A DNA stretch of 54,215 bases, from positions 1 through 54,215 of the forward strand of contig WQZZ01000002.1 in the NCBI GenBank assembly GCA_009780485.1. The letters run 5' to 3'. The notes under the pieces were generated by a model. It searched no databases and was not told where the DNA came from. It saw nothing but the letters and a program-made list of their open reading frames with translations. This DNA comes from Defluviitaleaceae bacterium. Lineage in GTDB: Bacteria; Bacillota; Clostridia; Lachnospirales; WRAX01. Shown here piece after piece: positions 23,438 to 40,528 of this stretch. Within the stretch, counting starts at the first letter, position 1; each line of letters begins with the position of its first letter. Made by a program: the position numbers and the translations under genes.

Positions 23438-23469
23438 AGATAGTCACCCCTCGTAATACATAGATAGTG

Positions 23470-23853
23470 TTATTGTGCTGATGTAACAATCCCTAAAAGC
23501 TTACTGACTTCTTTGGATAGTGCAACATAATCACCCCGCAAAGTATCCACATCCTTCAAAAGCATGGGCTGTTGACTGTTTACTGCCCTTGCAATCTGAT
23601 TAAGGTTGTTAGTGGCGTTTGACAGCAGAAATGTTAGTTGATTTATGCTGGATAAATCAATATCCAAGATAAAGCCTTGGTTTATTATCTCTCTGATAAA
23701 GTGGGAGCGATTTTTAGCCCCCACCTGTGCCATTCTCTCTAACAAAGCGGTTTTTTCTTCATCAGACATATATACCTTGATGCAATGTTGCTTGGTTTCG
23801 GGTTTTGTATCTGGCTTGGTTTCATGCTTTTCGCTTGACTTAGTTTCCATCAT
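23470..23853 (-). CDS. mobC: MobC-family relaxosome accessory protein
   Basis: IKVYMSDEEKTALLERMAQVGAKNRSHFIREIINQ (RHH-like) and NNLNQIARAVN are MobC hallmarks. Start at ATGATG 23853/23850 overlaps the upstream stop. The track N-terminal extension to 24153 is a shadow frame. Confidence 0.7.
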   Translation of the reverse strand: MMETKSSEKHETKPDTKPETKQHCIKVYMSDEEKTALLERMAQVGAKNRSHFIREIINQGFILDIDLSSINQLTFLLSNATNNLNQIARAVNSQQPMLLKDVDTLRGDYVALSKEVSKLLGIVTSAQ

Positions 23854-25282
23854 CAGCATCCATATCAACATCGGCATCTTCTGAATGGTAATCATGCTCG
23901 TTTTCGTTGTCATCGTCATGGCTACCGTGTTCATCATCGAATAAATCGTCTGCACTTTCTGGGTCGTTGCGGTCTGAATGGGTGTGGTCTTCTTGGTTGT
24001 TGGTTTCTTGGTTGGAGTTGTAATGACCGTCAGCATCACCATCGCCCTCATAATGACCACCTTCACCATCGCTTTCAAACTCATCCCCAAAATCACCGTC
24101 AAACTCATCACCGAAACCATCTTCACCATCGACAAAGCCACCAACTCCAGCATTACGCTTTTTCTGGCGGGATTTAATCATAAAGAAAAATCCAATGCTC
24201 ATAGCACCCAGCATAACTAGCAAAGATACAGCACTCATGCCGACCCTGCCACTGCCTGTATCGTGATATATGACTTCTTGACCAGTAACAACTTGAATCT
24301 GTTGACTATTGGCAATACCCGCCCCATGTCCAGCTTGTATGCCACCAAATCCTAACATTCCGCCTTGCTGTATGCTGGCTTCGTCACCAGCTTCCCAAGC
24401 TAAAGACATTAAATAAAATTCTGTAACAGGGGCTAAGAAATATACATTGTCTGCATCTCTTGCCCTGTCTATGATTAGAAAGAATGTATTACCTGCTTGG
24501 CTGTTAATTGTAATGAACTCCATATCTCCTACCATGATAGTGTCCACTAGCTCACCGCCACCGTCTGGGGTTAGTGGGCTTGGGGTTTGCTCTGTTCTTG
24601 GTAGAATTACTTGACCGTTTGTTGTGGGTAGGTCTGGTAGGTGTCGGGGTTCTGACTGAGTTACGTTCGGCTGTATATTATTGTTATCAGTGTCATTATT
24701 ATTGTTGTAGTCATCATAAGCACCGTTGTTTTCCCATTCGGATGAGGTAATGCCAAGGGCATCAAAAAACCACTCTGGAGGCAATTCGTCTGGCAGGGCT
24801 GATGTTTCTGCTTGGTATGTTACTCCAGTGGATGCTTGGGGGATGGAATTATCTGTGGTTGCTGTGCTTGTAGTGCCTGCACCGTTACTGAGTTGTCCAT
24901 TTGACACAGATGCTTGACTATTGTTTTCAAGACTTGATACAGGGGTAATGGACAAGATGTTTAATGGGGTGTGGTTTATGGCATTGCGTCCATCACTTGT
25001 GCTGTTGACGTTATTGCTGTCATTGTAGGTGTTTTGTTGGGAAGTATTAGCCTCCAAACTTTCGCCAAAAACTACCAACGAAAACGAAAGCGATAACCGT
25101 ACGATAAGCCAACATACCAAAAACATAATTGACAGAGCCGTTATAACCCCAAAAACGCATACTTTGGTTTCCTCTGATGTTGTTGCACGTTTTAATGTTG
25201 CACGTTTTGATGACGGCATTGCAGATACCATCGGAAATCTCGATATGTAAGTGTTAGTTGAATATTTGTCATTTTTAACCAT
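23840..25282 (-). CDS. DUF4366-like (CD1107-family) membrane-anchored mobile-element protein with acidic/His-rich tail
   Basis: AGGAGGAAG RBS and N-terminal TM. Core EFITINSQAGNTFFLIIDRARDADNVYFLAPVTEFYLMSLA is the DUF4366 signature. Second TM, then a D/E/G/H-rich tail. Confidence 0.65.
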   Translation of the reverse strand: MVKNDKYSTNTYISRFPMVSAMPSSKRATLKRATTSEETKVCVFGVITALSIMFLVCWLIVRLSLSFSLVVFGESLEANTSQQNTYNDSNNVNSTSDGRNAINHTPLNILSITPVSSLENNSQASVSNGQLSNGAGTTSTATTDNSIPQASTGVTYQAETSALPDELPPEWFFDALGITSSEWENNGAYDDYNNNNDTDNNNIQPNVTQSEPRHLPDLPTTNGQVILPRTEQTPSPLTPDGGGELVDTIMVGDMEFITINSQAGNTFFLIIDRARDADNVYFLAPVTEFYLMSLAWEAGDEASIQQGGMLGFGGIQAGHGAGIANSQQIQVVTGQEVIYHDTGSGRVGMSAVSLLVMLGAMSIGFFFMIKSRQKKRNAGVGGFVDGEDGFGDEFDGDFGDEFESDGEGGHYEGDGDADGHYNSNQETNNQEDHTHSDRNDPESADDLFDDEHGSHDDDNENEHDYHSEDADVDMDADDGN

Positions 25283-25596
25283 TGCCTACTTCCTCCTAAG
25301 TCATTGAATTATGACGGAGTTTTCGGCACTCCATCACTCTAATTTATTTGTTCTTTTTCGTAAAAAAATATTGTAATTTTATATGTAAAACTCGTTATAT
25401 AACGCAATCATTTTTTATTAATTAGCATCAGCAGTTTTACAACCACCCCATATCTTCCCCAGAAATGAGGTGTCAGCCATGAGGTATTTGCCATTCAGAT
25501 GAATTGCGTTGGGGTGGTTGCCCTGCTGATTATTGCTAATTGTTACCGATTATTTCTGTTTGTTGTTGGCTTCCGTGAGTTTAATTACGGAAGGTA

Positions 25597-28500
25597 TTAC
25601 TTGGTTGCGACAGCACTTTTGCGACGTTTGACTAAGATTAAGGTTGATAAACTTGCCATAGCGACAAACCCTATAGCTGTAAAGATTGTTGTAAAAGTGT
25701 TGAAAGTGTCGTCTGTTTGAGGGTTGGTAGTTGCTGTGTCGTTTGGCGTTATTACTAATTCGTCTGCTGTTTCGTCATCATCTTCATAATCGTCATATGG
25801 TGCAGGTGCTGATTGCTGTAGACCTACTGGCTCGTCAGCCGTTGGTGCAGGTGCTGATTGCTGTGGTTCTGCTGGTTCGTTTACTACTGGAGTTGGAGCA
25901 TAAACGGCTTGTTGAGGTGCGTTTGGCTCGTATACCGTTGACTGCTCTGGTTGTGGGGTCTGGTTGTTAGTTTCTGTGTCGGGTGCGGTGTCAGGTTGCT
26001 GTGGAGCTTCGGGAGTTGTTTGCGGTGGAGTTTGGTTGTTGTCGTAGTCGTTATCGTCAGTGTCATCATCACCATTATCATCATAATCTCCACCGCCTGC
26101 ACCATTATCATCACCAATATCTGGCTCATCTACTGGCGGTTGTGGTGTAGGACGCTCTATTGGTGGGGTGGTAACGGGTAGCTCTGGTACATACCAAACA
26201 GCTTTCAGAATAGTATGACCATTAGCGAAAACGCCACCACCCATAGCAATGACTTCCACGTCCTCATTAGACATCGGTGTGTAGGTTGTACCCACTACCC
26301 TCCAGCCAAGGAAAATACGGTTAGCTTCGATGCTTTCCATGAAGTTGGCTTTAATGTCAGATTTGGTAACGTCTTTACCGTAATTGCTGATGCCCATGCT
26401 ACCTACAATTCCATTGTAAGAGCCGTAACCATCATTACCATTGTCGGGGTTAGTGTTATTATCGCCACTATCGCCACTATCTGGGTCTGCATCATAATCA
26501 CTCCCCAAATCAGGAACAACAAACCCACCCAACTCATAAAGTGAGCGTCCCTGCCTTAGAGTCGCACTTGCTACATCATCACCATCAACAACAAAGGTAA
26601 CATCCGCTTGCCAGACAGCATAAAGGCTAGTGGCTGAATTGATGTTTGTTGTAGGTGACAATGGCGTGTCGCCGTTAGGCTCATTGCTCCAGTGTACAAA
26701 CTCCCAATTGTTGTTATGGACTGTCGGTATACTCGGAAATCTCTCATTAAGAGGATTACCAAGACGAATACCACGGCTTAGTGGTTCTCCACTGGGTAGA
26801 CTAGCTAGACCACCTAAACCAGCATCGAAGTTGATAACGGCATACCATTGTGCAAATAACACAGTAGCATGAGGGAACATATAACTGGAGTTAGGGTCTA
26901 TAGTGATACCACTACCATCCATGCGGGTATTCCATCCAAGGAAAGACACACCTGCTGGAGCAGTAATTAATGGGTCGCCACCTGTGTTTGCAATACTGTT
27001 AGGGAATTGGACATAACGGGTGTAGCTATCCTGTCCATTAATAACACCTTGCACTTGAACCATGCCATAATCATCAATGACGATTGCTGGTCCGAAACCA
27101 CGGTGGAACATGATGCCTGTGTTTGCTACCCATTGAGCAAAGACTGTGGTGTTTTGTGTCATTACAGTAGTAGCATCAAACCAATGTCCTAGGGTGTCAT
27201 CTCCTGTTATGTGAGTATGCCAGCCAATAAAGGTGTGACCAAACAGCACTGGGGCTGGTAGTGACAAAGGTGTGTTTGGTGTACCAACGGCTTGATGGTT
27301 ATTAGCAATGGTTCTGCCAAGCATCACTTCTTGGGTGGTGATAAGATTACTTTGGTTAGGGTCTTGGGAATTGCGGTTATCGTTGAATGTAAGTGTACCA
27401 CCCCAAGTAGCATAGATAGTCGGTCCACCTATAATCCCCGCTTGTGCATAAGTGCCAGGGAAACTAGCACGCCCTAAAGTCCCTGTAAAAAACGAACCAG
27501 AACCATCAGGAGCTAAGTTCCAACCCATGAAGCGATAACCTACTCTTGATGTAATACCAGCTTGTCCTGTAGATACTGGGAAGTGGAAGAAACCACCACC
27601 TACATTTGGACCTACCCAGTTCATTATATTGTTGTGGGTGTTGTGGGTGTAGTTACCATCTGCAAGGTGAGGTTGTATAGCCCATGGAATAACATTAGGA
27701 TTATAAGCAACAGGGTTTGTCGGGTCTCCAGCGAACACATTTCGCACAAAGGTGTTACCCCTGTTAATATCAGTCCCACCATTAGGGTCAAACTGGATAT
27801 ACATTGCAGGTCTAAAACGTGCTGCTAGATGAACACCACCAATAGGCATTTGCCCATGTACGTTGTTATTACTTGTTCCTCTAAATCCTAACCACGCTGG
27901 TAAAGACCAGTTAGGATTTAGTTCTGGTTGGATTGGTCCTAGTTGTACTCTTATACGCTCGCCAGCTTCATCTAGCACATATTCACCCATGGCATCCAGC
28001 AAATAGGGTAGGTTTAGAGTGCCAGGAATGTCATCCACATACCAACCCATAAAGATATAACCTAGTTTAACTGGATGGGCTGGCATCTCGCCTACATTCA
28101 ACATACCTGTGCCATTACAATTGATTGTAAGTGGGTTATTTGTACCTCTATAAGATACAGGTACATTGGCAGTGTTGTTGGTATTCATATAACCATGACG
28201 GAAATCCTCTGCACCCCTTCTCCAAATCGCCCCCTCTGGGAGGTGGAAGGTAACAGATGAAGATGTTTCTACTTCTGCCCATTGTGCGTAAAGGTGTAGA
28301 CTTTGAGTAATAAGAAGAACATCATTACCACTTATGGATGTATTCCAATCAGCAGATGTGAATGTACCATCCGAAGCTACGTTTATTACATGGTCTGGAT
28401 GATAAATACGTTCAACGCTTGGGTGACTTAGGTTTGCTTGGACTGTCCAGCCTAAGAACTCTCTGCCTTGCGGACTTTCCAAAGCAGGAAGCCCATAACG

Positions 28501-30390
28501 TCTTGTAGGGTTATCTGCGGGTGTCCAAAGACCAGATGTAAAGCCTTGAGAATCGCCACCTCTTAGAGTGTCGATTAGCAGGGCTTGCCCTGCTGGTATG
28601 CCAGAACCACCCATTGCTTGGTTTTTCTGGACTAGGTATCTTGGTATCATCCGTAGTACCTCGGTACTGCGGTTTAATTCCTGCCCGCCATTAGCCACAA
28701 ACTCTATGCGGGCAACCCAGTTAGCATGAACTTCCATGGATTGGGTAATCTCTACATTGGAACGACCGTTTAAGCTCGGCAATAACCTTGTACTCAAGAA
28801 GTAAGCTATGGGGGCATCCCCAGGGGGAGCTATACGTTGGACAGGACTTGCACCACCTGCGAAATTACCTTCTGTCCACCATCTGGCTACTTGGTCTGGT
28901 GTACCTGTCCACCAGCCCTCTAAGTGAAACCCAGCAGGGGCAATCGCAACAGGAGCGCCGAACCTATAAGATGTTAGATGTTGGTTTAATGGCACAACAC
29001 CTTCACCAGTACGGCTAGAACGATGAATAGACATACCATGATGGGCTAGCCTTGTTGCCATTCCAGAACCATCATTCAACAAACCACCGTCAGATGGTGA
29101 TATTGTGCCATCGCCAGCATTAAAGGTAATGGTGTGTACAGCACCTTCTGCCCAAACGGCTTGAATTTCTAGGTTGCTATTGATGACCGTATCAACAGTG
29201 AACACATCGCCGATGACACCGCCTGTCACTACGTGCCAACCCAAAAAGGTATTAGTGGCACTGGTTGGGTTCACAGGAAACACAATGCCTGTAATGTCAG
29301 CCATATGTGAAATGGTTTCGCCACGCAGTACAACCCTTGTAGCTAGATGAGTTACATTTGTTGGGTCAGTGCCAGCAACATCCATGTTGTTTGGGATAAT
29401 ACCGCCCAGATGGAATGATACTGATAGACCCCAGACTGCATAGGCGGCTAGGTTGCCGTATTCGTCTAGGTCGTCTACGGTAATTACTGTGGATGGGGTT
29501 AAAATTCTACCATTCAAACCATTGACAGAACCATTACCAACACCATTACCATAACTGTCAGAACCATTACCGATACCACCACCATAGCCATCAGAACTAC
29601 TAATCACCCAATGAATAAAGGCATACCCATCAAGTGTAGGGTCTTGCGGGAAAACGGCAACCCTTCCGTCAGCAGTTAAGAAACTAGTTTCATCTCCAGT
29701 CAATAGCTGTCCACCCATTGGATTAAAGTGGATAGTGCCGATAGAAAAGGGCATCGCTACACGATTGCCAGCAACTGCACCGTTTACCCCGCCAGTAACT
29801 GTGCCTGTACCAGCACCCGCACCAATGCCAACACCATCACCAGAACCTGCACCAGCATTGACACCATCACCAGAACCCATGTCTGTATTTGGTGTATTTG
29901 GGTCAGATGGTGATGCTGGTGTATCTGCATTGGGTAAATCTGATGTTGGTTTGTCGCCATCATCATTGTACTTGTCGGAGTATTCATCATCGGCATCTTC
30001 GCAAGAACACTCGTCATCGGCGTACTGGTCGCAATAGTCGTAATCAGGATAATCTGCTTCTGGTTTGTTGTGTTCTGGTGAATATTCATGTTCTCCAGAA
30101 TAATCATAATCGAAATAGCGATAATCCGAATACACATCATCAGAATGGTTTTCATCGTCACCATAATAGTGACCGTTATCATAAACATAACTACCATGTC
30201 TACCATGACTATCATATCCAGCGTTTTCCGTTACACCAGCGAAAACTAGCTGGGTTGAGAAGCTGGATAGAACCATAGCAAACACCAATGTCCATGCAAT
30301 CAATCTTGATGGTATGGACTTTCTTGACTTTACTTGATTTGTTTGTGTTGACTGTATTGCTTGTATTTCCTGTAATACCTTTACTTCCAT
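25597..30390 (-). CDS. 1597-aa cell-surface protein with ~10 Listeria-Bacteroides (InlB B-repeat/Flg_new-type) repeats and a C-terminal sorting signal
   Basis: Signal peptide LIAWTLVFAMVLSSFSTQLVFA. Repeats are marked by FIHW, FLGWHV, LEGWW, FLGWTV, FMGWYV, FMGWNL, FIGWHT, FLGWNT, FVHWSN and FLGWRV. C-terminus is NPQTDDTFNTFTTIFTAIGFVAMASLSTLILVKRRKSAVATK. Confidence 0.85.
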   Translation of the reverse strand: MEVKVLQEIQAIQSTQTNQVKSRKSIPSRLIAWTLVFAMVLSSFSTQLVFAGVTENAGYDSHGRHGSYVYDNGHYYGDDENHSDDVYSDYRYFDYDYSGEHEYSPEHNKPEADYPDYDYCDQYADDECSCEDADDEYSDKYNDDGDKPTSDLPNADTPASPSDPNTPNTDMGSGDGVNAGAGSGDGVGIGAGAGTGTVTGGVNGAVAGNRVAMPFSIGTIHFNPMGGQLLTGDETSFLTADGRVAVFPQDPTLDGYAFIHWVISSSDGYGGGIGNGSDSYGNGVGNGSVNGLNGRILTPSTVITVDDLDEYGNLAAYAVWGLSVSFHLGGIIPNNMDVAGTDPTNVTHLATRVVLRGETISHMADITGIVFPVNPTSATNTFLGWHVVTGGVIGDVFTVDTVINSNLEIQAVWAEGAVHTITFNAGDGTISPSDGGLLNDGSGMATRLAHHGMSIHRSSRTGEGVVPLNQHLTSYRFGAPVAIAPAGFHLEGWWTGTPDQVARWWTEGNFAGGASPVQRIAPPGDAPIAYFLSTRLLPSLNGRSNVEITQSMEVHANWVARIEFVANGGQELNRSTEVLRMIPRYLVQKNQAMGGSGIPAGQALLIDTLRGGDSQGFTSGLWTPADNPTRRYGLPALESPQGREFLGWTVQANLSHPSVERIYHPDHVINVASDGTFTSADWNTSISGNDVLLITQSLHLYAQWAEVETSSSVTFHLPEGAIWRRGAEDFRHGYMNTNNTANVPVSYRGTNNPLTINCNGTGMLNVGEMPAHPVKLGYIFMGWYVDDIPGTLNLPYLLDAMGEYVLDEAGERIRVQLGPIQPELNPNWSLPAWLGFRGTSNNNVHGQMPIGGVHLAARFRPAMYIQFDPNGGTDINRGNTFVRNVFAGDPTNPVAYNPNVIPWAIQPHLADGNYTHNTHNNIMNWVGPNVGGGFFHFPVSTGQAGITSRVGYRFMGWNLAPDGSGSFFTGTLGRASFPGTYAQAGIIGGPTIYATWGGTLTFNDNRNSQDPNQSNLITTQEVMLGRTIANNHQAVGTPNTPLSLPAPVLFGHTFIGWHTHITGDDTLGHWFDATTVMTQNTTVFAQWVANTGIMFHRGFGPAIVIDDYGMVQVQGVINGQDSYTRYVQFPNSIANTGGDPLITAPAGVSFLGWNTRMDGSGITIDPNSSYMFPHATVLFAQWYAVINFDAGLGGLASLPSGEPLSRGIRLGNPLNERFPSIPTVHNNNWEFVHWSNEPNGDTPLSPTTNINSATSLYAVWQADVTFVVDGDDVASATLRQGRSLYELGGFVVPDLGSDYDADPDSGDSGDNNTNPDNGNDGYGSYNGIVGSMGISNYGKDVTKSDIKANFMESIEANRIFLGWRVVGTTYTPMSNEDVEVIAMGGGVFANGHTILKAVWYVPELPVTTPPIERPTPQPPVDEPDIGDDNGAGGGDYDDNGDDDTDDNDYDNNQTPPQTTPEAPQQPDTAPDTETNNQTPQPEQSTVYEPNAPQQAVYAPTPVVNEPAEPQQSAPAPTADEPVGLQQSAPAPYDDYEDDDETADELVITPNDTATTNPQTDDTFNTFTTIFTAIGFVAMASLSTLILVKRRKSAVATK

Positions 30391-30469
30391 AGTATTCCTC
30401 CTCTTTGTGAGATATAGGGCGGGAGGGACTTACGCCCTTGGGTGTGAACACTTCACCTTTGCCCCTCGC

Positions 30470-30502
30470 TCTCATCAGATGGATGGTGGTCCTCTGATGA
30501 GA
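30470..30502 (-). promoter_or_regulatory. perfect 10-bp-stem hairpin in the adhesin leader, overlapping the uORF 3' end
   Basis: TCTCATCAGA (30470-30479) and TCTGATGAGA (30493-30502), 13-nt loop. Confidence 0.6.
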
Positions 30503-30549
30503 AATGTTACTGTATTTACAGCAACTTTTTTGATGGTTTTTTGCATCAT
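30475..30549 (-). CDS. 24-aa upstream ORF in the adhesin leader
   Basis: AAAGGAG RBS, ATGATG at 30549, MMQKTIKKVAVNTVTFLIRGPPSI-stop. The stop codon lies inside the 3' arm of the hairpin. Confidence 0.35.
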   Translation of the reverse strand: MMQKTIKKVAVNTVTFLIRGPPSI

Positions 30550-30606
30550 CAAAACTCCTTTCAAGTATTAAAATTTGATTATTGAATTTGATAGTTTTTA
30601 AGATAA

Positions 30607-31170
30607 TCAAAATCCTTTTGCAAGAACAAACCGATTAAATTCTGGACACAATCCAAGACTTGCCATTAAAGCCCTATTAAATTTGTTACCAGCTTTATTT
30701 AGGCTACGTATATACCCAACTTTGTGTCTAAAGACAGATTTGTCCAATGTATGAACCTGCTCGAACTGGACAACGCTGGTTTCAAAGCGGTCAAAAGACC
30801 TCATATTCTCGAACTTTATGTCACGTTGATTTATGTAAGCGTGGGTTGGCATATGGGGCTTTTTGTCTGTTGATGTGATGATTGCCACAATCACAGTGGG
30901 AGCGTAGTGGTTGCCTATGTTGTTTTGTAGGACTAGCACAGGGCGTACACCGCATTGACTACTTCCTATGGTTTTGGGGATGTCGGCGAAGTATATGTCA
31001 CCTCGTTTGTAGATTGCGGTTATGGGGTCGAGAATTGTGTATTCTGGTATTACGTAGTTAGGTTTTTTATGGGTAGACTTTGAAACGTCATATCTTCTTT
31101 GGTATTTTCTCATGGGGTCATTTCGCCCCCTCCTTGTCTTTGTTTGGTGCATTGTTTTCAGGTTTGTCAT
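30607..31170 (-). CDS. MazF/PemK-family endoribonuclease toxin with a basic N-terminal extension
   Basis: KRGDIYFADIPKTIGSSQCGVRPVLVLQNNIGNHYAPTVIVAIITS ... SVVQFEQVHTLDKS aligns by eye with B. subtilis EndoA/MazF. Start is 31170 or ATG 31113; either leaves at least 35 extra N-terminal residues. Confidence 0.8.
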   Translation of the reverse strand: MTNLKTMHQTKTRRGRNDPMRKYQRRYDVSKSTHKKPNYVIPEYTILDPITAIYKRGDIYFADIPKTIGSSQCGVRPVLVLQNNIGNHYAPTVIVAIITSTDKKPHMPTHAYINQRDIKFENMRSFDRFETSVVQFEQVHTLDKSVFRHKVGYIRSLNKAGNKFNRALMASLGLCPEFNRFVLAKGF

Positions 31171-31435
31171 CAGATTGATTTTTGGGTTCTTTTGTTGATA
31201 CAGGCTCTTTAGGTTTTGGAGAGGTGTTTCGTAAAAGTTTTTCTACATCTTCCAAAGACACGCTATGCTTTTTCATCAGCCCTTGGATGATGCCACCCTC
31301 AATATCTTTGCCCTTGGCTTCGAGGATTGATATTTCCTGTTGGGCAATATCCAGTTGTTGGCGTAACTTGTCCGCCTTGGCATGGGCAACTAATAATTGT
31401 TTGTTGTTACTTTCAAGGCGTTGGTGTGAACTCAT
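31118..31435 (-). CDS. DUF4315-like coiled-coil conjugation protein
   Basis: ADKLRQQLDIAQQEISILEAKGKDIEGGIIQGLMKKHSVSLEDVEKLL, with size and position after VirB4 typical of DUF4315. K/P/E-rich tail. Confidence 0.6.
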   Translation of the reverse strand: MSSHQRLESNNKQLLVAHAKADKLRQQLDIAQQEISILEAKGKDIEGGIIQGLMKKHSVSLEDVEKLLRNTSPKPKEPVSTKEPKNQSDDKPENNAPNKDKEGAK

Positions 31436-34224
31436 TGGGATGCTACCTCCTTGGCTTCTTTGGTTTCATTGACTTTATTGGTTTTACTGACTTGGCTGGT
31501 CTTAATGGCTTCTTTGTTTTTGGCGAGCTTGATTGAGTTAATCGAACCAATCGGATTAGTAAAGTTGGTCGAGTGGGTCGAACCATGCAAGTCACTGGGC
31601 TTGGTAGTCATAACCTTGTAAAGCTCGGTATCTTCGGGGAATTTATCTTTAGCAGCGATTATGTTGTTGCCATACTTTATCAAGACATCGCCCTGCTCTG
31701 CGTTAGTTACATGAGCTAGATGCCCTGGCGAAATATTAAATCTTTCTGCCAATATCTTACCATCATCAGGTGCTTGGTCTAGGAGTGCTACAAACTCGCA
31801 GTTTTCAAGGATGTTTGCGACTTCTGCGGATAACAGAAACTCCTTTACATTCTGTGTAATAACAGTGGGTATTGCACCCCACTTTCTAAAACGCTTGTAC
31901 ATCTCGGCTGAGTATGACGCTGTTTGCTTATGGCGTATGAGGAGATGGAACTCGTCAGAATATGTCCATGTACCTATGCCTAAGTTTCTGTTGCGGGACA
32001 CTCTTGACCATATTTGGTCTTGAATAATGAGCATAGCTAAGGGTCGCATACTCTCCCCAAGGGATTTAGTATCAAAGCAGATAAGGCGATTATCGGCATC
32101 TATGTTGGTTTGGTGGTTAAACATTGTGTATGAACCCTTAACAAAGCGATATAGGGCGTGGGCAAGGTTTTGTGACTTTTCCTTCCAGTTACTATTTTCT
32201 GGATTTTCTGGGTCAGTTTCATTTATTAAAGCATTGTACAAATCTTCTAATATTGGCATATTTTCTGGGATAGGATTTTTAAGGTACTCACGATAAACAA
32301 CCACCACACAATGGTCGATTATTGACTGCTCTACATCTTCAAGCCCATTTGGGCGGGTAGTGATGGTTTCCATCATTGAGGCGATAAACTCGCTTTTTAA
32401 CCCGATGGGGTCGTTGGGTTCTTCTTTTGTGCCGTAATCCAACACAATGTCCATTGGGTTTATATGGGTTTTTGATGCGGTGGAGAGTTTTACTACTGTC
32501 CCACGAAGCTTTTTTACAAGGGCTGAATACTCTCCCTCTGGGTCAAGGATGAGTATGGTGTCACCAGTAGCTAGGAATACATGGACAAACTCTCTTTTTA
32601 CAAAGAAGGATTTACCAGAGCCTGGGATGCCCAGTACAACTCCGTTTGGGTTCTTTAACTTCTTACGATTGGCAAGTATAACCCTGCCCGATATAGCATT
32701 AGTGCCGTAATATATGGCTTCTGCATCCTCTTGGAATAGTTCTTGCGAGGAAAAAGGCATAAAGGCTGCAACGGCTGATGTTATTAGTTTTCTGGATAGT
32801 GGGCTTGGGATTTGGTTTACACCTAAAGCTAGGGATGATGCTAGACCCTGTTCTTGTAAGTATTCCAGTCCGTGTAATTTACAGCTATATTGTGAAGCAA
32901 TGCTTTTAGTGGATGCTATTCTTCCATCAAGGTCTGGCGGGTTGCTTGCAAGGTGCATTACTATAAAATGGGTGTCAAAAAGTTCTTCGTTTCCTTGTAA
33001 ATCCTTTATTAATCCAGTTGCAGCCTCAGAATACATCTTGATGTCTGGAGGTAGTATATCTGCGTCATAGTTTTCTCGAAAAGCTTTCTTTTGACCAGCG
33101 GACTTGGTTGCGTTTACCTCTGAAAGTTTTGCTTTGCCGTATTTTATGGCAGTGGATTTGTCCATGGGTTTTATGTGTTGTGTTATGATTATGGGGTAAT
33201 CTGTGTCTAAGAGTTTTGATAAAAACTTGTCGGGTAGTTCTTCTGCTGATATTTCTAGGTAGGACATTGCACATAGGGTTTTGTTTCCGATGGGTTGGGC
33301 AGGTTTATTGGAGTAGGACGACTTCGCTTCCAACACAAAGGTATCAGCTTGAAAACGGAAACTTTGTGGGCTTATGTAATCTTTGGTGGTGGCGTGGATG
33401 TTGTTATCTAAGGGAAACCCTGTAGCGTTTGTTTTGCGATTGCTAGGTAAAACAAATCTGTCCTTTGGGTGTGGGTTTAACTGCTTATGTAACAATTTTA
33501 ATCTCTCTTGTCCATCCAGTGGGTATGCCGTCACTCGTAAAGCCTTGAAAATCGAAAGCATTTCCCTTTCAATGCGGTTTAGTCTGTTTGAGGCATCTTT
33601 TATATTCTTGGCGTGTATGCCGAAAGTGGCGTATTTTCTTTTCACTAAGCCCTTGCCAGCGTCAGCAAGTTTTTGGCGTAGCATTGTGTAAAATTCTTTG
33701 CGTATGTTTTGGAAGCGGTCGTCTTTGCCTTGCAACTTGACAGCAGTTTCAATTTCTTGTAAATCTGGGTAGTAATTCATGTAAGTAAGTTGTAGTGAAA
33801 CATCTTCGCTGAATGAATTGAGTAATTGACACCATTGACCAAAGATGCGTCTTTTTTCGTGTTGACCAGCCATTTGGAAGTTGGTGTCCTCAAAAGCTAT
33901 GGTTTTAGTGTAGTAGTCACCTTCTACGTGACATAGACCGCTGGAGAGCATTGTTATGTATGGGATTGTGTCGTGTGGATTTGTTGGTGGTACGGCTTGT
34001 CCAAAGGCTTTTTTGTATAAGAATTGTTTGGACTGGGTGAAGAAAGAAATGGATGGTTTACGTTTAGTTGGCGGTTGGTTGGTTTGTGGTTGTTTTTGGT
34101 ACGGGGGTTGTTGGTTTTTGTTGTGTGGTTGCGGTTTGTAGTTTTGTTGGTTTTTGTGGTTCTGACCCTTGTGGTTTGGATGGTTTCTTTGGGTTGGTTG
34201 TGTTGTTTTTGTGGCTTGGGGCAT
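31432..34224 (-). CDS. VirB4-like conjugative transfer ATPase (CD1110/TcpF-type)
   Basis: Walker A GIPGSGKSFFVKRE and N-terminal IPYITMLSSGLCHVEGDYYTKTIAFEDTNFQ are typical of Firmicutes VirB4. Q/P/N/K-rich N-terminal extension. Confidence 0.9.
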   Translation of the reverse strand: MPQATKTTQPTQRNHPNHKGQNHKNQQNYKPQPHNKNQQPPYQKQPQTNQPPTKRKPSISFFTQSKQFLYKKAFGQAVPPTNPHDTIPYITMLSSGLCHVEGDYYTKTIAFEDTNFQMAGQHEKRRIFGQWCQLLNSFSEDVSLQLTYMNYYPDLQEIETAVKLQGKDDRFQNIRKEFYTMLRQKLADAGKGLVKRKYATFGIHAKNIKDASNRLNRIEREMLSIFKALRVTAYPLDGQERLKLLHKQLNPHPKDRFVLPSNRKTNATGFPLDNNIHATTKDYISPQSFRFQADTFVLEAKSSYSNKPAQPIGNKTLCAMSYLEISAEELPDKFLSKLLDTDYPIIITQHIKPMDKSTAIKYGKAKLSEVNATKSAGQKKAFRENYDADILPPDIKMYSEAATGLIKDLQGNEELFDTHFIVMHLASNPPDLDGRIASTKSIASQYSCKLHGLEYLQEQGLASSLALGVNQIPSPLSRKLITSAVAAFMPFSSQELFQEDAEAIYYGTNAISGRVILANRKKLKNPNGVVLGIPGSGKSFFVKREFVHVFLATGDTILILDPEGEYSALVKKLRGTVVKLSTASKTHINPMDIVLDYGTKEEPNDPIGLKSEFIASMMETITTRPNGLEDVEQSIIDHCVVVVYREYLKNPIPENMPILEDLYNALINETDPENPENSNWKEKSQNLAHALYRFVKGSYTMFNHQTNIDADNRLICFDTKSLGESMRPLAMLIIQDQIWSRVSRNRNLGIGTWTYSDEFHLLIRHKQTASYSAEMYKRFRKWGAIPTVITQNVKEFLLSAEVANILENCEFVALLDQAPDDGKILAERFNISPGHLAHVTNAEQGDVLIKYGNNIIAAKDKFPEDTELYKVMTTKPSDLHGSTHSTNFTNPIGSINSIKLAKNKEAIKTSQVSKTNKVNETKEAKEVASQ

Positions 34225-34798
34225 GATGCACCTCCTTTTTACTATGATTTGTTTGCACTTGTTTTGATAATGGTATGATTATCGGTGGTTTTGTTGCTGG
34301 TGGTTTTGTGGGGTGTTGGTTTTTGTGTGGTTGATGGATGGATTTAGATTGAGGTGTGGATTGGGGTTTAGGTTGGGATGCGGAGTGTAATGGGGGTTTA
34401 GGTTTGGGTATGGGTTGGGATGTAGACTTGGATTGTAAACTAAGTTTGTGCTGGAATTGGGGTTTGGATTGCGGGTTAGGTCGGTGCGTGGGACTATTCT
34501 TCTTGAAACTGCGTGAAGAAGGAAACAGCCAAAACCGTAACTTTAGCACCATCATCCTTTCCATGGATAGTCCTTCCCTTTTGTTAAATCCTAACATAAT
34601 AATGGGTATTACCACGAATATTACAATCCAAGCCGCACCAACGATGCTGATGCCGAGTAATCCAGTTGCTATTTGATAGGCTATAAAGCCAGCACCAAAG
34701 GCAATGGCTAGATATATCCATTGTTTTTTGGTTAGTATTCCAGTTTTGACTTTCATTTGGTCTAGGTCTTTGGGGATTGAGATGTAATTGTCTTCCAT
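34064..34798 (-). CDS. PrgI-family (TcpE-like) small T4SS membrane protein with a long P/Q/K/S-rich tail
   Basis: First ~100 aa carry two TM helices (LTKKQWIYLAIAFGAGFIAYQIATGLLGISIVGAAWIVIFVVIPIIMLGF) in the standard position upstream of VirB4. The tail overlaps the virB4 start by 161 nt. Confidence 0.6.
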   Translation of the reverse strand: MEDNYISIPKDLDQMKVKTGILTKKQWIYLAIAFGAGFIAYQIATGLLGISIVGAAWIVIFVVIPIIMLGFNKREGLSMERMMVLKLRFWLFPSSRSFKKNSPTHRPNPQSKPQFQHKLSLQSKSTSQPIPKPKPPLHSASQPKPQSTPQSKSIHQPHKNQHPTKPPATKPPIIIPLSKQVQTNHSKKEVHHAPSHKNNTTNPKKPSKPQGSEPQKPTKLQTATTQQKPTTPVPKTTTNQPTAN

Positions 34799-34858
34799 GT
34801 GTTTTCATCCTTTCTTGGGTGGTTTGTGGTTTGGTTGCTGTGGGTTGGTTTAGGTTAG

Positions 34859-35752
34859 TTAAGATGCTCCGAAGATGCTTTTTGATATTTGTTGGGTTTT
34901 TAGGAGAAGGATAATCATCATAACCGATACACCTGCATAAACGAACATCATCATTCCAATCCCTTCTGCGGATGGAGTTATAGGAATGAGTGCCATTGTA
35001 GCACCATTAAGAACGAGTACCATTATCATCAAAAACCCTTGGAAAGATGTTGCCACCAATGTTTTTATATAGTTATTGCCCACGCTACTCCATTCCCTGT
35101 TTATCAATGTTGCAAACGGGATTGGGGCAAGTGACATTTTCATCAAAATCAAAATCATTCTGTAAATCACAATAATCATAATTATCATCCGACAAGCCGT
35201 CATAATAAAACCCAAAAGAAAGCTGGTTATCCATAGAGAAGACAAAGTGGTTATAAAATAATAATTCCTAAGATTGTCTTCTAAGGCATCAAGCATTATA
35301 TCAAAATTTAGAGCCTCAATACCCATGCCTTCTTGTGCGAGGGTTACAGCTTCTGCACCTATGCCAAAAATCCAATTGACTATAGGAAATACATTAGTTA
35401 AGAGAAGTACGCCAATGAAGACCTTTACAAGCCACTTGAAAAGATGAGTGTAATCAAAATCCCTAAGTGTATTACCCTCTGACAGCATAGACATGAACTC
35501 ATATCCCACAATTAAAGCGAAAGCCACAAGAGCAATCGGCAAAATGGTGCTGTTAGCAAAATTTTCTATTATCCCAAAATGGTAGCCACCCAAAAAGTTT
35601 TCTGGTGTTTGAGCTAACATTTGTGCGGACTGCTCCACTTCATTTTCCCAATTAGCAAAAGCGTTTTCAACATTACTAACGATGCCTTGTATTAAGATGT
35701 CTTCTATCTCTGCAATGATGTCGTTGAATATCCTTTGTATAAAGTCCCCCAT
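34859..35752 (-). CDS. VirB6-like polytopic T4SS membrane protein (CD0415/CD1112-type)
   Basis: N-terminus MGDFIQRIFNDIIAEIEDILIQGIVSNVENAF followed by 5-6 TM helices, positioned between Maff2 and PrgI. Confidence 0.55.
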   Translation of the reverse strand: MGDFIQRIFNDIIAEIEDILIQGIVSNVENAFANWENEVEQSAQMLAQTPENFLGGYHFGIIENFANSTILPIALVAFALIVGYEFMSMLSEGNTLRDFDYTHLFKWLVKVFIGVLLLTNVFPIVNWIFGIGAEAVTLAQEGMGIEALNFDIMLDALEDNLRNYYFITTLSSLWITSFLLGFIMTACRMIIMIIVIYRMILILMKMSLAPIPFATLINREWSSVGNNYIKTLVATSFQGFLMIMVLVLNGATMALIPITPSAEGIGMMMFVYAGVSVMMIILLLKTQQISKSIFGAS

Positions 35753-35790
35753 TGGCGTACTTCCTCCTAAAAATCACTCATACTACTCTC

Positions 35791-36087
35791 TTACACCGTA
35801 AATATATCCCCTAACATAGGAATAATAAGCGCTCCCACAACCATAAGCCCAACGCCACCAATTACCTGCCATCTGCCTTGGCTGACCTTCGCACCATCAC
35901 CATCACCTTGACCATCAAACAACTTAACGATGCCAAAGCCTGATAACATACCGCCACCACCAACAACTATTGCTTGTAAGATGCTGATGATTTGTGTCCA
36001 CATTTGAAAACCTGCATCAGGGTTTACGGTCATTCCTGTTAGGGACATTGTGCCACTTAAAATTTCTTGTAGCGTAGATTGAAACAT
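35791..36087 (-). CDS. Maff2-family mobile-element protein
   Basis: Two glycine-rich TM segments (AIVVGGGGMLSGFGIVKLF ... VIGGVGLMVVGALIIPML). AGGAGGAAAG RBS places the start at ATG 36087. Confidence 0.65.
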   Translation of the reverse strand: MFQSTLQEILSGTMSLTGMTVNPDAGFQMWTQIISILQAIVVGGGGMLSGFGIVKLFDGQGDGDGAKVSQGRWQVIGGVGLMVVGALIIPMLGDIFTV

Positions 36088-36104
36088 AAAACTTTCCTCC
36101 TTTT

Positions 36105-37844
36105 TCACACAGTAGATTTATGTATTTTTGCTTGTGTGTTGTTTTTGGGCGGAACTCTCGCCCTTGGTCTGGGTGTTGCTTTTTGTTGTCGGGGTTTGGT
36201 GTTGCTACCCTTACTAGGCTTCTTTATGCCACCATTCATCATCCTATATACTGGATGTGTCGTCACATCAAACTTATCCGATAAAAACGGTGGAACACCT
36301 CTAAGGATTAGCAGACACTTGCCCCCATCCAGACGAGCCAGCTCGTCAGCAGTCATAAGTTCACGCCCAGTCTTTTTGTAACTTTTGCTAAAAGACCCGC
36401 TTTTGCCTTTGGTTTCAGAATTGTCCATCATGTCAATGGTTTCTTTACCCATAACTCTTGTGAGGTATTTAAGCGTTTCTTCATCGTCACCGCCAAGGAA
36501 AAGCTTTGTATCACAGTTGCCAATAATTGTGTTCATATGTTCTTTGTATACGGCTTTTAGTTGGCTAAGGTTTTGCAGTATTATACAGGCTGATATTTCA
36601 CGGCTTCTAATGGTGGCAATGAGCCTGTGAAAGTTAGGTATTTTGCCAAGATTTGCAAACTCGTCCAAGATACAGCGGACGTGGACTGGTAATCTTCCGT
36701 CACGAAATCTATATTTGCTCTCTGCACGGTTTACGAGAGTGGAGAACATTTGAAAGTAGAGCATGGTTGCTATAAAGCTGTAGGTGGAGTCCGTATCATC
36801 TGTAATAACGAAAAGGGCAGTTTTTCTATCGCCTATAGTTTCCAACTTCATTTCATCTTTTTCCATTACATCCCTAACCGCTTGGATGTCAAACACTGCA
36901 AGGCGTACACCGCATGAAATGATGATAGATTTTAGGGTCTTGCCAGCACCTTGCTTGAATTTTTTATATTGCCTTACAGAAAAGTCATCTGGGTACAGGT
37001 CTTCTATTCTCTCAAACTCTCTATCCACCATACTTTTGTAGTTCTCGTCCCCTTCTTTAACTTCCATGCTTGTAACCATTTCAACTAAGGTGTTCATGTT
37101 GTGCATGGTTTTGTCCTTTACATGAAATTTGATATATGCTATTAAAGCCATATACAAAAGCTTTTCGCTTTTTGTCCAAAAGTCTCCGTCATCACTGGAT
37201 TTAGTGTTTTCTGTAGTGCTACTCTGTAGAACATTTACAACTCGCAGTATATCGTCCTCGGTCTTTATGTAATCAAAAGGATTATAGCCCATAGAAGCAC
37301 CGAAATCCTTTAGGTTAAGCACACGCACGTCATATCCGCCCACCTTCTCCAAGACCTTACCTAGTGAATAAAAAAGCTCTCCTTTGGGGTCCGTTATTAC
37401 GTATGAGCTGTGCATTTGCATTATATTTGGGACGCAGAAGAAGCGAGTTTTACCAGAGCCAGCACCGCCAAATACCAGCATATTTTTATTGCGTCCATAC
37501 TTGGGGATGTCTGGTCGGCTGTTCATTGTTAGACCTTCTGTGGCAGTTAGGATTACATTTTGTCTGGGGTTTGTGTCCATGTATGGTTTCATGTCCTCAG
37601 ATGTACCCCATCGGGCAGAGCCGTGTTCTATACCACGTCTATATTTACGCTTGTCTTTACCCATGACCCTAATCGACACAAAGGCGGTGGCGGTTGCTCC
37701 AGCTAGAATGAAGTTATTGAACTGCACTAATTGCAGGGTAAAGTTGATATAAAATACCACAAAGGCAACCATTGCAAATATTATGGCGTTTGATATTATT
37801 TCTCTTTTTTGTTTTTCTTTTTTGTCTGTGGTTATGGTGTACAC
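36105..37844 (-). CDS. VirD4/TraG-type type IV coupling protein
   Basis: N-terminal TM helices, Walker A VFGGAGSGKTRFFCVPN and Walker B-like region ALFVITDD. Basic C-terminal tail. GTG start is uncertain. Confidence 0.9.
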   Translation of the reverse strand: MYTITTDKKEKQKREIISNAIIFAMVAFVVFYINFTLQLVQFNNFILAGATATAFVSIRVMGKDKRKYRRGIEHGSARWGTSEDMKPYMDTNPRQNVILTATEGLTMNSRPDIPKYGRNKNMLVFGGAGSGKTRFFCVPNIMQMHSSYVITDPKGELFYSLGKVLEKVGGYDVRVLNLKDFGASMGYNPFDYIKTEDDILRVVNVLQSSTTENTKSSDDGDFWTKSEKLLYMALIAYIKFHVKDKTMHNMNTLVEMVTSMEVKEGDENYKSMVDREFERIEDLYPDDFSVRQYKKFKQGAGKTLKSIIISCGVRLAVFDIQAVRDVMEKDEMKLETIGDRKTALFVITDDTDSTYSFIATMLYFQMFSTLVNRAESKYRFRDGRLPVHVRCILDEFANLGKIPNFHRLIATIRSREISACIILQNLSQLKAVYKEHMNTIIGNCDTKLFLGGDDEETLKYLTRVMGKETIDMMDNSETKGKSGSFSKSYKKTGRELMTADELARLDGGKCLLILRGVPPFLSDKFDVTTHPVYRMMNGGIKKPSKGSNTKPRQQKATPRPRARVPPKNNTQAKIHKSTV

Positions 37845-37896
37845 CCCCTTTTTGATTTTTTGCTTGTATATGGCTATAGTTTACAAGTTGATACCC

Positions 37897-38424
37897 TCAC
37901 GCATTTACCGTTGTTCCGTATGCAAGGAAAATGACAATCGTTAATACACTCAATATCAATATAAGTCTTATAATCGGCATGAAATATCTACCGTAAATTC
38001 CCCGAAACACCCACAAACCACCTTTCTTTCCTTTCTTGCCGTTACAACGAACACAACAGGCAACTAGATTTGAAATGTGGTTGACCCCATCGGGCAGGGT
38101 TTTGAAATGCTCCCTCAAATGCTTGGTATACTGCACCCTGCGGATGGAATGGATGTGGTCAACAACGATTTTAGGCTTGTCCCACATGACACGCCCGCAG
38201 TATGGACAAAAGTATAGACTTTCAAAGGCTTTGTTCGGGAATACTTTCAAAAGGAAGCCTTGTACGGAGGGTGGTATTTGCCAACCCTTATCATGCTCGA
38301 AGTATCGCCGTCTGTAGTCGTGACTACGTTTTAGGGTCTTTGTTCGTTCTATGTAAGGTTTTTTATTCACGATGTCCACCTTGCTCATGTGACCCAGCAG
38401 GTTTTGTATGAGTAAGTTGACCAT
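37897..38424 (-). CDS. HNH endonuclease with a C-terminal transmembrane anchor
   Basis: CPYCG ... VVDHIHSIRR ... NHISNLVACCVRCNGKKG gives the HNH/Zn-finger pattern. C-terminus FMPIIRLILILSVLTIVIFLAYG is hydrophobic. No clear RBS. Confidence 0.65.
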   Translation of the reverse strand: MVNLLIQNLLGHMSKVDIVNKKPYIERTKTLKRSHDYRRRYFEHDKGWQIPPSVQGFLLKVFPNKAFESLYFCPYCGRVMWDKPKIVVDHIHSIRRVQYTKHLREHFKTLPDGVNHISNLVACCVRCNGKKGKKGGLWVFRGIYGRYFMPIIRLILILSVLTIVIFLAYGTTVNA

Positions 38425-38507
38425 CGTTTATAAATATGGTACAATCGCAATTAGGGTTAGGGAGTACGTAATTCCGCATTTTACCCCTAGGAGGAGAATG
38501 TACAAAG

Positions 38508-39230
38508 ATGATGTTTTTGGATGTCCAAGATTTAGATGAGTTTTTTTCTTTGTTTTTGCAAGAGGTGGAACGCTTGCCCCTAAATAGAAGACGTGACTGC
38601 AAAAACACCTTAACTGAATACATAAACTTTTTCAACGCAATACCTCCTACGTATTATAAACTCGAATACCGCCGTAAATTTGAAGTGACCGTCTATACGG
38701 AGCGACCTTTTTATACTATACGCTGGTGTGAAAAGACATTAAATGACCTTGCAACAAGCAATCCTCAACACAAAACACGTATAAAGGTTGAAAAATGTAA
38801 GGAATTGGTGGACGCTGATATTTTACAAAACCCAAAGCAACTACAATTCATACCAAGTAAAGGAGCAATAATAATCGGTGATACATCAACTATATTCCCT
38901 ACATGTCCTCTTACAATCCTTGACGGAAATCATCGCTTCGCAAAGGCTGTATACGATAAAGCTGAATATATAGAAGCTTATTTTCTCCATCCTTGTATTC
39001 ACACAGAAGCGATTAGCAATGAATACATCAAAGCACTCTATAAGACACACAGCAATTGCTTGTTGACTTTGATGTATTATTCAGGCGTAATGAAAGCGGA
39101 CGAGGTGAAAAAAGGAATTCTTTTTCTTGATGGGTTATCCGACCCCCTAAGCAGCAGTCTCCAGAAAATTGGTAGTGATAAGAGGTTATCTACTATACTA
39201 AGGAACTTTTTCAGCAGACCAAGACACTAG
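38508..39230 (+). CDS. hypothetical protein with a ParB/Srx-like DGNHR motif
   Basis: AGGAGGAG RBS. IKVEKCKELV ... PLTILDGNHRFAKAVYDKAEYIEAYFL resembles the ParB N-terminal/sulfiredoxin-fold core (DGxHR). It is the only plus-strand gene inside the transfer region. Confidence 0.45.
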   Translation: MMFLDVQDLDEFFSLFLQEVERLPLNRRRDCKNTLTEYINFFNAIPPTYYKLEYRRKFEVTVYTERPFYTIRWCEKTLNDLATSNPQHKTRIKVEKCKELVDADILQNPKQLQFIPSKGAIIIGDTSTIFPTCPLTILDGNHRFAKAVYDKAEYIEAYFLHPCIHTEAISNEYIKALYKTHSNCLLTLMYYSGVMKADEVKKGILFLDGLSDPLSSSLQKIGSDKRLSTILRNFFSRPRH

Positions 39231-39296
39231 GTTTGCTTTATCGATGCTTTCGTTTCATGCCACAATATTCCTAACGGTTATATGTTGCATTGTATT

Positions 39297-39827
39297 TCAA
39301 AATGGTAAATTATCATCAGCGAGGCTGTTATCAACTTCATAAAAAGTATCGTTGGGCGATGTGTCGTCTTGGCTTTGGCTTTGAGGTTGGGTGTGAGATT
39401 GACTTTGGGGATTGGAATTATTATCACTTTGTGAAGAAGAAACATCAGTATCGTTTTGGTTATTGTTGGCACTTTCATTTCTGCCCTCAAAACTAGCACG
39501 GCTTTCTGCAAAGAAATGTTCGTTGGTGATTACCTCTGTAACCCAACGGCGATTACCTCCTTGGTCGTCATAATTACGCACCTGTATTCTTCCAACAACG
39601 CTGACTAATTGTCCCTTTTGATAGAACTTTGCAACAAACTCCGCATCCTTGCCGAAGCAAGTGCAGTTGATGAAGTCAGCGGATTGTTCGCCAGCATCTT
39701 TTCTTTCACGGCTTATTTGCCTGTCTACAGCTAAAGTGTAGCGAACTACAGCAATTGGATTTGCTCCTGCACTGTAACGTATTTCTGGGTCACGGGCTAG
39801 TCTGCCCATTAGGATTATTTTGTTCAT
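39297..39827 (-). CDS. ssb: single-stranded DNA-binding protein
   Basis: MNKIILMGRLARDPEIRY ... OB fold, Q/S/N-rich linker and acidic tip DDNLPF. Confidence 0.9.
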   Translation of the reverse strand: MNKIILMGRLARDPEIRYSAGANPIAVVRYTLAVDRQISRERKDAGEQSADFINCTCFGKDAEFVAKFYQKGQLVSVVGRIQVRNYDDQGGNRRWVTEVITNEHFFAESRASFEGRNESANNNQNDTDVSSSQSDNNSNPQSQSHTQPQSQSQDDTSPNDTFYEVDNSLADDNLPF

Positions 39828-39876
39828 GGTGGTCAGCCTCCTAGTTTAATGAAATGGCTTAAATTTGTTGTTTTTG

Positions 39877-40526: not shown

Positions 40527-40528
40527 AG

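Follow-up and report, generated by a model that had tools for sequence, protein, structure and literature searches.

A MazF/EndoA-like gene without a recognisable adjacent antitoxin gene in the transfer operon of a Defluviitaleaceae integrative and conjugative element

MazF toxins are usually one half of a self-contained two-gene module, and in the closest described system, EndoA/MazF-bs of Bacillus subtilis (NdoA; structures 1NE8, 4MDX and 4ME7), the antitoxin gene ndoAI/mazE lies upstream of the toxin gene. A solitary MazF is known from Myxococcus xanthus, where MazF-mx has no adjacent antitoxin and its antitoxin, MrpC, is encoded elsewhere. Here we analysed a MazF-like gene of a Defluviitaleaceae bacterium (assembly GCA_009780485.1) which, unlike that of EndoA, has no such gene upstream and is located in the type IV secretion system (T4SS) operon of an integrative and conjugative element (ICE). 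It lies on contig WQZZ01000002.1, positions 1 to 54,215 of the forward strand; this whole stretch of 54,215 nucleotides is referred to as the window, and all positions are counted in it unless a different contig is named. The MazF domain is shared from end to end with EndoA and with its orthologs from B. anthracis, B. cereus and Staphylococcus aureus, and the catalytic residues are common to them. In comparison with EndoA, the window protein has a basic N-terminal tail of ~32-35 residues, an internal insertion of 8 residues and a C-terminal tail of 13 residues. In addition, four invariant or nearly invariant positions are changed (E to S, S to A, R to H and R to V), and the motif SEQGG reads SSQCG. 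Because of the insertion, the tails and these substitutions, the RNA motif cleaved by this protein cannot be predicted from that of EndoA.

Identity and conservation of the MazF-like protein

The open reading frame (ORF) at 30607..31170 (minus strand) is present as a maximal reading frame of 187 amino acids. Its most likely form, identical to protein P0001, spans 30607..31113 (minus strand) and encodes 168 amino acids. A Pfam search matched the ORF to PemK_toxin (PF02452, CcdB/MazF superfamily) with 76.1 bits (E=3.1e-21, profile positions 1-93 of 109), the curated cutoff being 23.1 bits. This domain corresponds to 30709..31008 (minus strand), that is, to residues 55-154 of the 187-residue ORF or 36-135 of the 168-residue form, and holds the catalytic Arg (in GVRPV) and Thr (in IITS). 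Solved EndoA/MazF chains of Bacillus and Staphylococcus (4hke, 7bxy, 1ne8, 4mdx, 4me7 and 4mzm) were matched end to end with E values of 2e-23 to 1e-21, residues 53-175 of the ORF pairing with chain residues 2-114, and the identity to B. subtilis EndoA was ~45-48%. R57 and T80 (numbering of the 168-residue form) align to Arg25 and Thr48 of the B. subtilis protein, mutation of which abolishes MazF activity (PMC7354611; PMC10893535). All 21 columns that are invariant in an alignment with 64 homologs (65 MazFs in all) were kept. The strand pattern in an AlphaFold2 (AF2) model of the 168-residue protein was as expected for an SH3-like beta-barrel, at a mean predicted local distance difference test (pLDDT) score of only 57. 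Searches of NCBIfam and PADLOC gave no match for this protein or for the product of the gene upstream. The original prediction of a MazF/PemK-like protein carrying EndoA motifs was borne out by the Pfam and PDB alignments, and the catalytic residues, whose substitution it had proposed to look for, are both in place. By sequence criteria the ORF is a real, intact member of the MazF/EndoA lineage, and we infer that its product has RNase activity and is toxic.

The protein belongs to a subfamily with four members among 5.8 billion proteins (P0001, P0002, P0004 and P0129). The signatures of this subfamily are SSQ[CW]G in the place of SEQGG, FEQ[VI]HTLDKS in the place of LEQIRTIDK, the 8-residue insertion and NKF[ND].ALM near the C-terminus. 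Four positions with 98-100% conservation in 62 canonical MazFs are substituted (E52S/T, S71A, R121H and R127V/L). Since these substitutions are common to all the members, which are only 54-71% identical to each other, they point to a variant that is conserved and not to decay, and it is probable that RNA specificity, antitoxin specificity or both have been altered in the subfamily. No member was found in the GTDB species-representative genomes and plasmids, where the matches were canonical MazFs with no more than 51% identity, nor among the matches listed for JGI metagenome contigs, all of which were also canonical MazFs at <=51% identity. One protein with a score between the subfamily and the canonical MazFs, P0130, was discarded, since it is an alr-linked canonical MazF that contains an internal duplication. 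Other architectures were seen among the homologs: P0003 (250 amino acids) and P0005 (275 amino acids) are tandem MazF-MazF single-chain fusions, and P0134, P0151 and P0209 (~190 amino acids) share a similar C-terminal extension of ~70 residues.

The DNA of the gene is 100% identical across the four contigs that carry it, which come from four sample accessions. A diverged copy, 75% identical, is present on contig L001, and the ratio of non-synonymous to synonymous substitution rates (dN/dS) between both copies is 0.23, which indicates, at the level of sequence comparison, that the gene is under purifying selection. This bears on the question of whether the gene is carried along as a passenger that is neutral or in decay, namely the remnant of a toxin-antitoxin (TA) module with a toxin that is inactive or barely expressed. 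Such a remnant would be in agreement with the extreme rarity of the lineage, the several otherwise invariant residues that are substituted, the loss of frame of the ancestral start codon in the window lineage (see below) and a copy truncated after ~76 residues on another contig, L007. Against it stand the dN/dS value, the retention of the catalytic Arg and Thr and of the 21 invariant positions, the substitutions shared by members as distant as 54-71% identity, and the in-frame ATG that was retained as a replacement after a frame-shifting indel of 74 nt. A passenger is, hence, an unlikely explanation.

Search for an antitoxin and the gene upstream

No MazE, PemI, AbrB or ribbon-helix-helix (RHH) antitoxin domain was found in the neighbours of the MazF-like gene, which are a coiled-coil gene upstream and a 24-residue leader followed by an adhesin gene downstream. 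When 20 further ICE ORFs, small or unassigned, were scanned with Pfam, none of these domains was found either, and the only TA-like pair in the scanned ORFs was Gp49/HTH_3 at 16213-16922. This confirms, over the neighbours and these 20 ORFs, the earlier statement that no antitoxin is visible; the region of supposed overlap with the upstream gene, for which a small antitoxin detectable by homology had been considered, does not hold one either. The cognate antitoxin gene that defines type II mazEF/pemIK modules, adjacent and in the same operon, was thus not found. In the case of the subfamily member P0004, a hairpin is all that can be discerned in the 112 nt visible upstream of the gene, where no coding sequence was recognised.

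Neutralisation might be provided in trans by the chromosomal MazE (EndoAI) of the host, with the ICE carrying only the toxin half and relying on, or competing for, the housekeeping antitoxin of its Firmicute hosts. The protein is of the EndoA lineage, its best matches being chromosomal MazFs with 45-51% identity, and non-cognate MazE and MazF proteins of this lineage cross-neutralise in vitro (PMC10893535). However, E52S/T, S71A, R121H and R127V/L together with the 8-residue insertion may alter the groove for MazE and RNA, and the window shows no mazEF of the host. We consider this explanation doubtful; should it hold, a mobile element would depend on the antitoxin of its host or compete for it.

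Apparent absence of the antitoxin gene was also observed for canonical EndoA-type mazF genes in genomes and metagenomes of Clostridia (L122, L123, L128 ~5767..6080; L170 6765..7001; L173 18150..18733), where either no ORF of at least 30 amino acids or no called gene was present at the place expected for ndoAI/mazE. These genes are mostly next to alr, the L173 copy being located after an oxidoreductase-like gene, and some of them show apparent N-terminal extensions from upstream TTG or GTG starts. EndoA-type MazFs that seem to lack an antitoxin may be commoner than annotation suggests. The mirror image of the orphan toxin of the window was seen on contig L009, an ICE without MazF, in which a lone Phd/YefM-like antitoxin ORF (6585..6872, minus strand) lies between the MobC-like and M23 peptidase genes with no candidate-toxin ORF of at least 60 amino acids beside it.

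The gene immediately upstream (31118..31435, minus strand) encodes a coiled-coil protein of 105 amino acids. It had been labelled a conserved DUF4315 conjugation protein, and this label stands in that it is a small coiled-coil gene placed after a CD1110-type VirB4, but not in the family assignment, since the protein is only a remote relative of DUF4315: a Pfam search gave no match even at E<=10, DUF4315 (PF14193) included. Only two relatives were present in the index of 5.8 billion proteins, and an exhaustive search of 1.84 billion representatives with the family profile gave seven matches. Of these seven, P0128 scores 24.3 bits on DUF4315 (cutoff 27) and P0125 reaches E=0.08. Through these distant relatives a divergent DUF4315-like identity is remotely justified, the link being only transitive. 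DUF4315 proteins are the most divergent backbone proteins of ICEs (PMC12084326). The 105-residue protein resembles those of Firmicute ICEs in size class (~83-105 amino acids), coiled-coil character and position in the T4SS module (PMC12084326), from which it differs in falling below the Pfam threshold. Its AF2 model consists of a helix at residues 3-56, a second helix at 61-71 and a disordered tail rich in P, K and E at 79-105; the family profile matches only coiled coils in the PDB, and dN/dS against L001 is 0.12. Antisense ORFs over this gene (96 amino acids in the window, 140 in L001) were rejected as by-products of coiled-coil codon usage. Searches of genomes with the VirB4 of the window alone or with a three-member alignment of the DUF4315-like proteins found nothing, and wider alignments were needed. 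In two ICEs from Defluviitaleaceae metagenome-assembled genomes (L008 and L009), the same family (45-46% identity, motif IE[SG]GIIQG) follows VirB4 and is followed by CD1107-like, MobC-like and M23 peptidase genes, and neither ICE carries MazF or the adhesin. Its presence after VirB4 in ICEs without MazF marks the DUF4315-like gene as part of the backbone and not as a dedicated antitoxin.

A third arrangement was found at 74..542 (minus strand) and 1262..1367 of L007, a contig of only 1.4 kb from the same metagenome, which carries a copy of the 105-residue gene (61% identical) and a truncated MazF-like gene. This gene pair is located behind an intergenic region of its own, beside a divergent Phd/YefM module and without VirB4, and the homology to the window is limited to these two genes. 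The MazF-like gene of L007 ends after ~76 residues at a junction to unrelated sequence with a near-consensus promoter (TTGAAA, 17 nt, TATAAT), and the divergent Phd/YefM antitoxin is accompanied by a ParE/RelE-like fragment of 62 amino acids. Either rearrangement of an ICE or a chimeric assembly could account for this contig.

These data bear on a rival view in which the DUF4315-like coiled-coil protein serves MazF as partner or as non-canonical antitoxin, so that the MazF-like gene would not be an orphan. Both genes are adjacent in all three diverged variants, including the pair of L007 with its own intergenic region, they are predicted to be translationally coupled, and the upstream protein shares with many antitoxins a disordered tail at the C-terminus. 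On the other side, the same family (45% identity) occupies the same post-VirB4 position in ICEs lacking MazF, P0004 has no upstream partner in the 112 nt visible, and the family profile finds no structures other than coiled coils. Moreover, the P/K/E-rich tail is poorly conserved and has no hydrophobic or aromatic residues, and the L007 pair comprises a truncated MazF on a very short contig. A partner role of this protein is thus quite unlikely.

Translation start and N-terminal extension

The gene calls on the four public contigs with the MazF-like protein (4/4) start at ATG 31113 and give 168 amino acids. This ATG sits 4 nt past the stop of the DUF4315-like gene. A strong Shine-Dalgarno (SD) sequence, AAGGAGGGGG, is present at 31135-31126, at a distance of 12-15 nt from it. 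Together with a mini-ORF of three codons (ATG ACC CCA TGA, 31121-31110), read in the sequence, the SD forms the putative translation-initiation region (31110..31135, minus strand); the mini-ORF ATG (31121) overlaps the stop of the upstream gene (TGA, 31120-31118), and the mini-ORF stop overlaps the MazF ATG (31113-31111). No SD was found before ATG 31170 or ATG 31152, both of which are inside the upstream coding sequence. The in-frame upstream part of the maximal ORF (31114..31170, minus strand), within the 3' end of the DUF4315-like coding sequence, is not conserved in L001 and is probably untranslated as MazF. Reading of the codons between ATG 31113 and the MazF core revealed no in-frame ATG, GTG or TTG.

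In L001 a GTG start in frame with MazF follows 5-6 nt past the same SD, and the mini-ORF ATG of the window is the homolog of this GTG. Between the conserved start and the conserved core, the window has 74 extra nt with respect to L001. Because this number is 2 mod 3, the ancestral start no longer shares the frame of MazF in the window, where ATG 31113 replaces it. Taken together, these features make it likely that translation starts at ATG 31113 and not at ATG 31170. From this start the extension has ~32-35 amino acids instead of 54 and the genes do not overlap; hence the 53-nt overlap and the extension of up to 54 residues that had been thought possible were not supported by the SD search, the gene calls or L001, which has no equivalent. 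In contrast, the other part of that description agrees with our data, as a basic extension close to the suggested minimum of 35 residues exists and no start codon is nearer to the core.

The extension, MRKYQRRYDVSKSTHKKPNYVIPEYTILDPITAIY (31009..31113, minus strand), contains 8 K/R versus 3 D/E and is specific to this lineage: it is absent from P0002, P0004 and P0129, and the residues that precede the MazF core number 12 in P0002, ~10 in P0004 and ~5 in the copy of L007. Residues 1-32 have pLDDT values <50 in the AF2 model and are predicted, at this low confidence, to be disordered. When the tail alone was compared with the PDB and Pfam, no meaningful match was obtained.

MazE-type inhibitors fill the positively charged RNA groove of MazF with acidic segments that act as RNA mimics. 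The extension had been suggested to be an intramolecular inhibitor, equivalent to a fused antitoxin; it does exist, and there is no closer start codon with which it could be bypassed. Nevertheless, the tail is net basic, unlike those acidic segments, is predicted to be disordered, is missing in the closest relatives and has no similarity to any antitoxin, and we regard this suggestion as very improbable. If the basic tail is functional, it more likely raises the affinity for RNA than inhibits the enzyme, by analogy with the toxin TfiT described below.

Expression with the transfer operon and comparison with known systems

The genes of the operon, all on the minus strand, are arranged in the order VirD4, Maff2, TrbL, PrgI, VirB4, DUF4315-like, MazF-like, 24-residue leader, 1597-residue adhesin, CD1107-like, MobC/NikA-like, M23 peptidase and relaxase, which agrees with the location described originally, inside a conjugation operon and with an adhesin leader downstream. 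The VirB4-like conjugation ATPase (31432..34224, minus strand) belongs to the CD1110 family (NCBIfam NF045971, 834 bits), and the surface adhesin-like gene (25597..30390, minus strand) contains Listeria-Bacteroides repeats (Pfam Flg_new). In L008 and L009 the DUF4315-like gene abuts the CD1107-like gene and the intervening genes, adhesin included, are absent, whereas L001 carries the same MazF, leader and adhesin. These three appear, from the comparison of the contigs, to be one block inserted between the DUF4315-like and CD1107-like genes. None of 22 genome loci with a related VirB4 carries MazF in the T4SS region (0/22). PemK was matched only once among them, in L173, by a canonical MazF situated ~6 kb downstream of VirB4; its neighbours look like housekeeping genes, and it seems to fall outside the element.

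A consensus scan, which is weak evidence, detected no sigma-70-like promoter on the coding strand between 30200 and 31600, so that the own autoregulated promoter of type II mazEF/pemIK modules was not seen in this region. As no promoter-like site lies between the 3' end of VirB4 and the start of the adhesin, the MazF-like protein would be made only from the transcript of the transfer operon. According to the arrangement of stop, SD and start codons, its translation is predicted to be coupled to that of the DUF4315-like gene. An Rfam scan of 30200-31500 revealed no known RNA family.

Between the MazF-like and adhesin genes there is a leader ORF of 24 amino acids, MMQKTIKKVAVNTVTFLIRGPPSI (30475..30549, minus strand), which ends in RGPP (codons at 30495-30484). 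The L001 leader, MKKATRKVTAGVVVFLIRGPPPDNNNGGK (914..1003), keeps the motif FLIRGPP. A 9-bp hairpin (CTCATCAGA...TCTGATGAG) encloses the RGPP codons, and the leader region of 231 nt is strongly structured (z=-3.95). RGPP and RAPP are ribosome-arrest motifs refractory to EF-P (PMC12992588), and the leader looks like an arrest-peptide attenuator for the adhesin. A stem-loop was also observed ~12 nt upstream of the adhesin SD (30438..30417, minus strand; 1032..1056 in L001), with arms AGGGCG...CGCCCT in the window and AAGGGTA...TACCCTT in L001 and no Rfam match. The two compensatory pair changes between both sequences suggest a conserved RNA structure. At the C-terminus of the adhesin (25597..25740, minus strand), the sequence TNPQTDDTF is followed by a hydrophobic stretch and KRRKSAVATK, which we take to resemble a sorting signal of sortase-B type (NPQTN-like) rather than LPXTG.

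UACAU is the canonical motif of EndoA. The number of UACAU motifs in every gene of the operon was compared with that in synonymous-codon shuffles, and no significant enrichment or depletion was obtained; the adhesin gene has 6 versus 7.4 expected, and the largest deviation was that of the primase gene (4 versus 1.8, z=1.9). A 5-mer screen showed no MazF-like motif bias, the only signal being the avoidance of restriction-site palindromes. A link of the MazF/SraP type, as in S. aureus, finds no support here, at least for the UACAU motif, and a regulatory link from MazF to the adhesin mRNA is speculative. The avoidance of short palindromes that contain GC is extreme, within the ICE as well as in its flanks (window 1..54215; observed/expected: GATC 1/~198, CCGG 3/~102, CGCG 2/~102, GGCC 7/~102 and GCGC 14/~102), which would fit a host that exerts strong restriction pressure.

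We tentatively favour the explanation that the gene encodes a solitary, active MazF RNase that cells produce only while they express the transfer operon. A CD1110-type ICE would have acquired the MazF-like gene in its T4SS operon along with the cassette of stalling leader and adhesin, and the only transcript of the gene would be that of the transfer operon. Translation of MazF would depend on ribosomes that terminate on the DUF4315-like ORF, the stop of which is 4 nt upstream, and in the window lineage it would be attenuated by the mini-ORF and the poor spacing of the SD, probably with a low level of MazF as a result. In transfer-active cells the RNase would then cut single-stranded RNA, probably at a motif other than UACAU, since otherwise invariant residues are substituted. 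The outcome may be slowed growth of the donor, a re-shaped donor transcriptome or RNA processing. The toxin would be controlled through its expression, possibly helped by an antitoxin acting in trans, and not by a dedicated adjacent antitoxin. We infer both the control by expression only and the role in donor arrest.

Several points weigh against this explanation. The AF2 model of the 168-residue protein is of low confidence. The position of MazF directly after the DUF4315-like gene in three diverged variants, in L007 even in the absence of VirB4, also fits a functional pair of two genes. The attenuation by the mini-ORF is specific to the window lineage; because the GTG start of L001 is well spaced and L007 has its own SD, attenuated translation is not a conserved feature. 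Finally, a MazF that nothing neutralises would be expected to harm the cells that make it.

A more far-reaching version, which we consider rather unlikely, is that an EndoA-type RNase with altered specificity loops was recruited by the ICE as a dedicated conjugation factor coupled to transfer, under the control of operon expression and translational coupling instead of an antitoxin. As such, it could arrest or reprogramme the donor during mating, process the operon mRNA for the RGPP leader and adhesin, or be delivered to recipients. The last of these roles can also be formulated separately, as a MazF effector that the T4SS moves into recipients during mating with the basic tail as secretion signal. 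Its location inside a T4SS operon would suit such an effector, and in Bartonella TA toxins are reported to have been recruited as substrates of conjugative T4SSs (PMC5675462). Yet no secretion domain can be recognised in the protein, its relatives do not conserve the tail and there is no immunity gene; delivery, which is pure conjecture, is thus highly improbable.

The MazF family is thoroughly known, and surveys commonly turn up orphan toxins. This locus is unusual in its combination of a very rare subfamily, a conserved placement in a T4SS operon of Gram-positive type, the coupling to a backbone gene, the absence of an antitoxin in cis and the co-insertion with an RGPP leader and adhesin. 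Whereas MazF toxins usually form part of a module, this one has been kept without partner gene in at least two diverged elements. MazF-mx, the solitary MazF of M. xanthus, is a chromosomal developmental gene of a different MazF lineage with a known trans-acting neutraliser, in which it is unlike the gene of the window. Besides the lack of an adjacent antitoxin gene, both would have in common that control comes from outside the locus or through regulated expression. The four natural variants, with tails of 5 to 35 residues before the core, are a tractable set for questions on the neutralisation of orphan toxins and on the specificity loops.

Two ICE-borne systems are comparable in other aspects. 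TfiT of the TfiT/TfiA pair from the tfs4 ICE of Helicobacter pylori (YafQ family) has a short basic terminal tail of lysines that potentiates its activity (PMC7584586). As an endonuclease toxin carried by an ICE and provided with a basic tail, TfiT is a model for the tail of the window MazF, from which it differs in having a cognate adjacent antitoxin and a different fold, that of the RelE/ParE superfamily (PMC7584586). In ICEclc, the growth-arrest genes parA-shi are reported to be active in transfer-competent cells (PMC6812849). The proteins and the host phylum are unrelated to those of the window, and the resemblance is a functional one deduced from the role proposed here, namely a growth inhibitor encoded by an ICE and present only in the transfer-active subpopulation. 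If the window MazF is active, it would show a mobile element able to employ a TA toxin as an effector whose regulation follows the state of transfer, and it would join the ICEclc-type growth-arrest systems in the mating-associated control of donor physiology.

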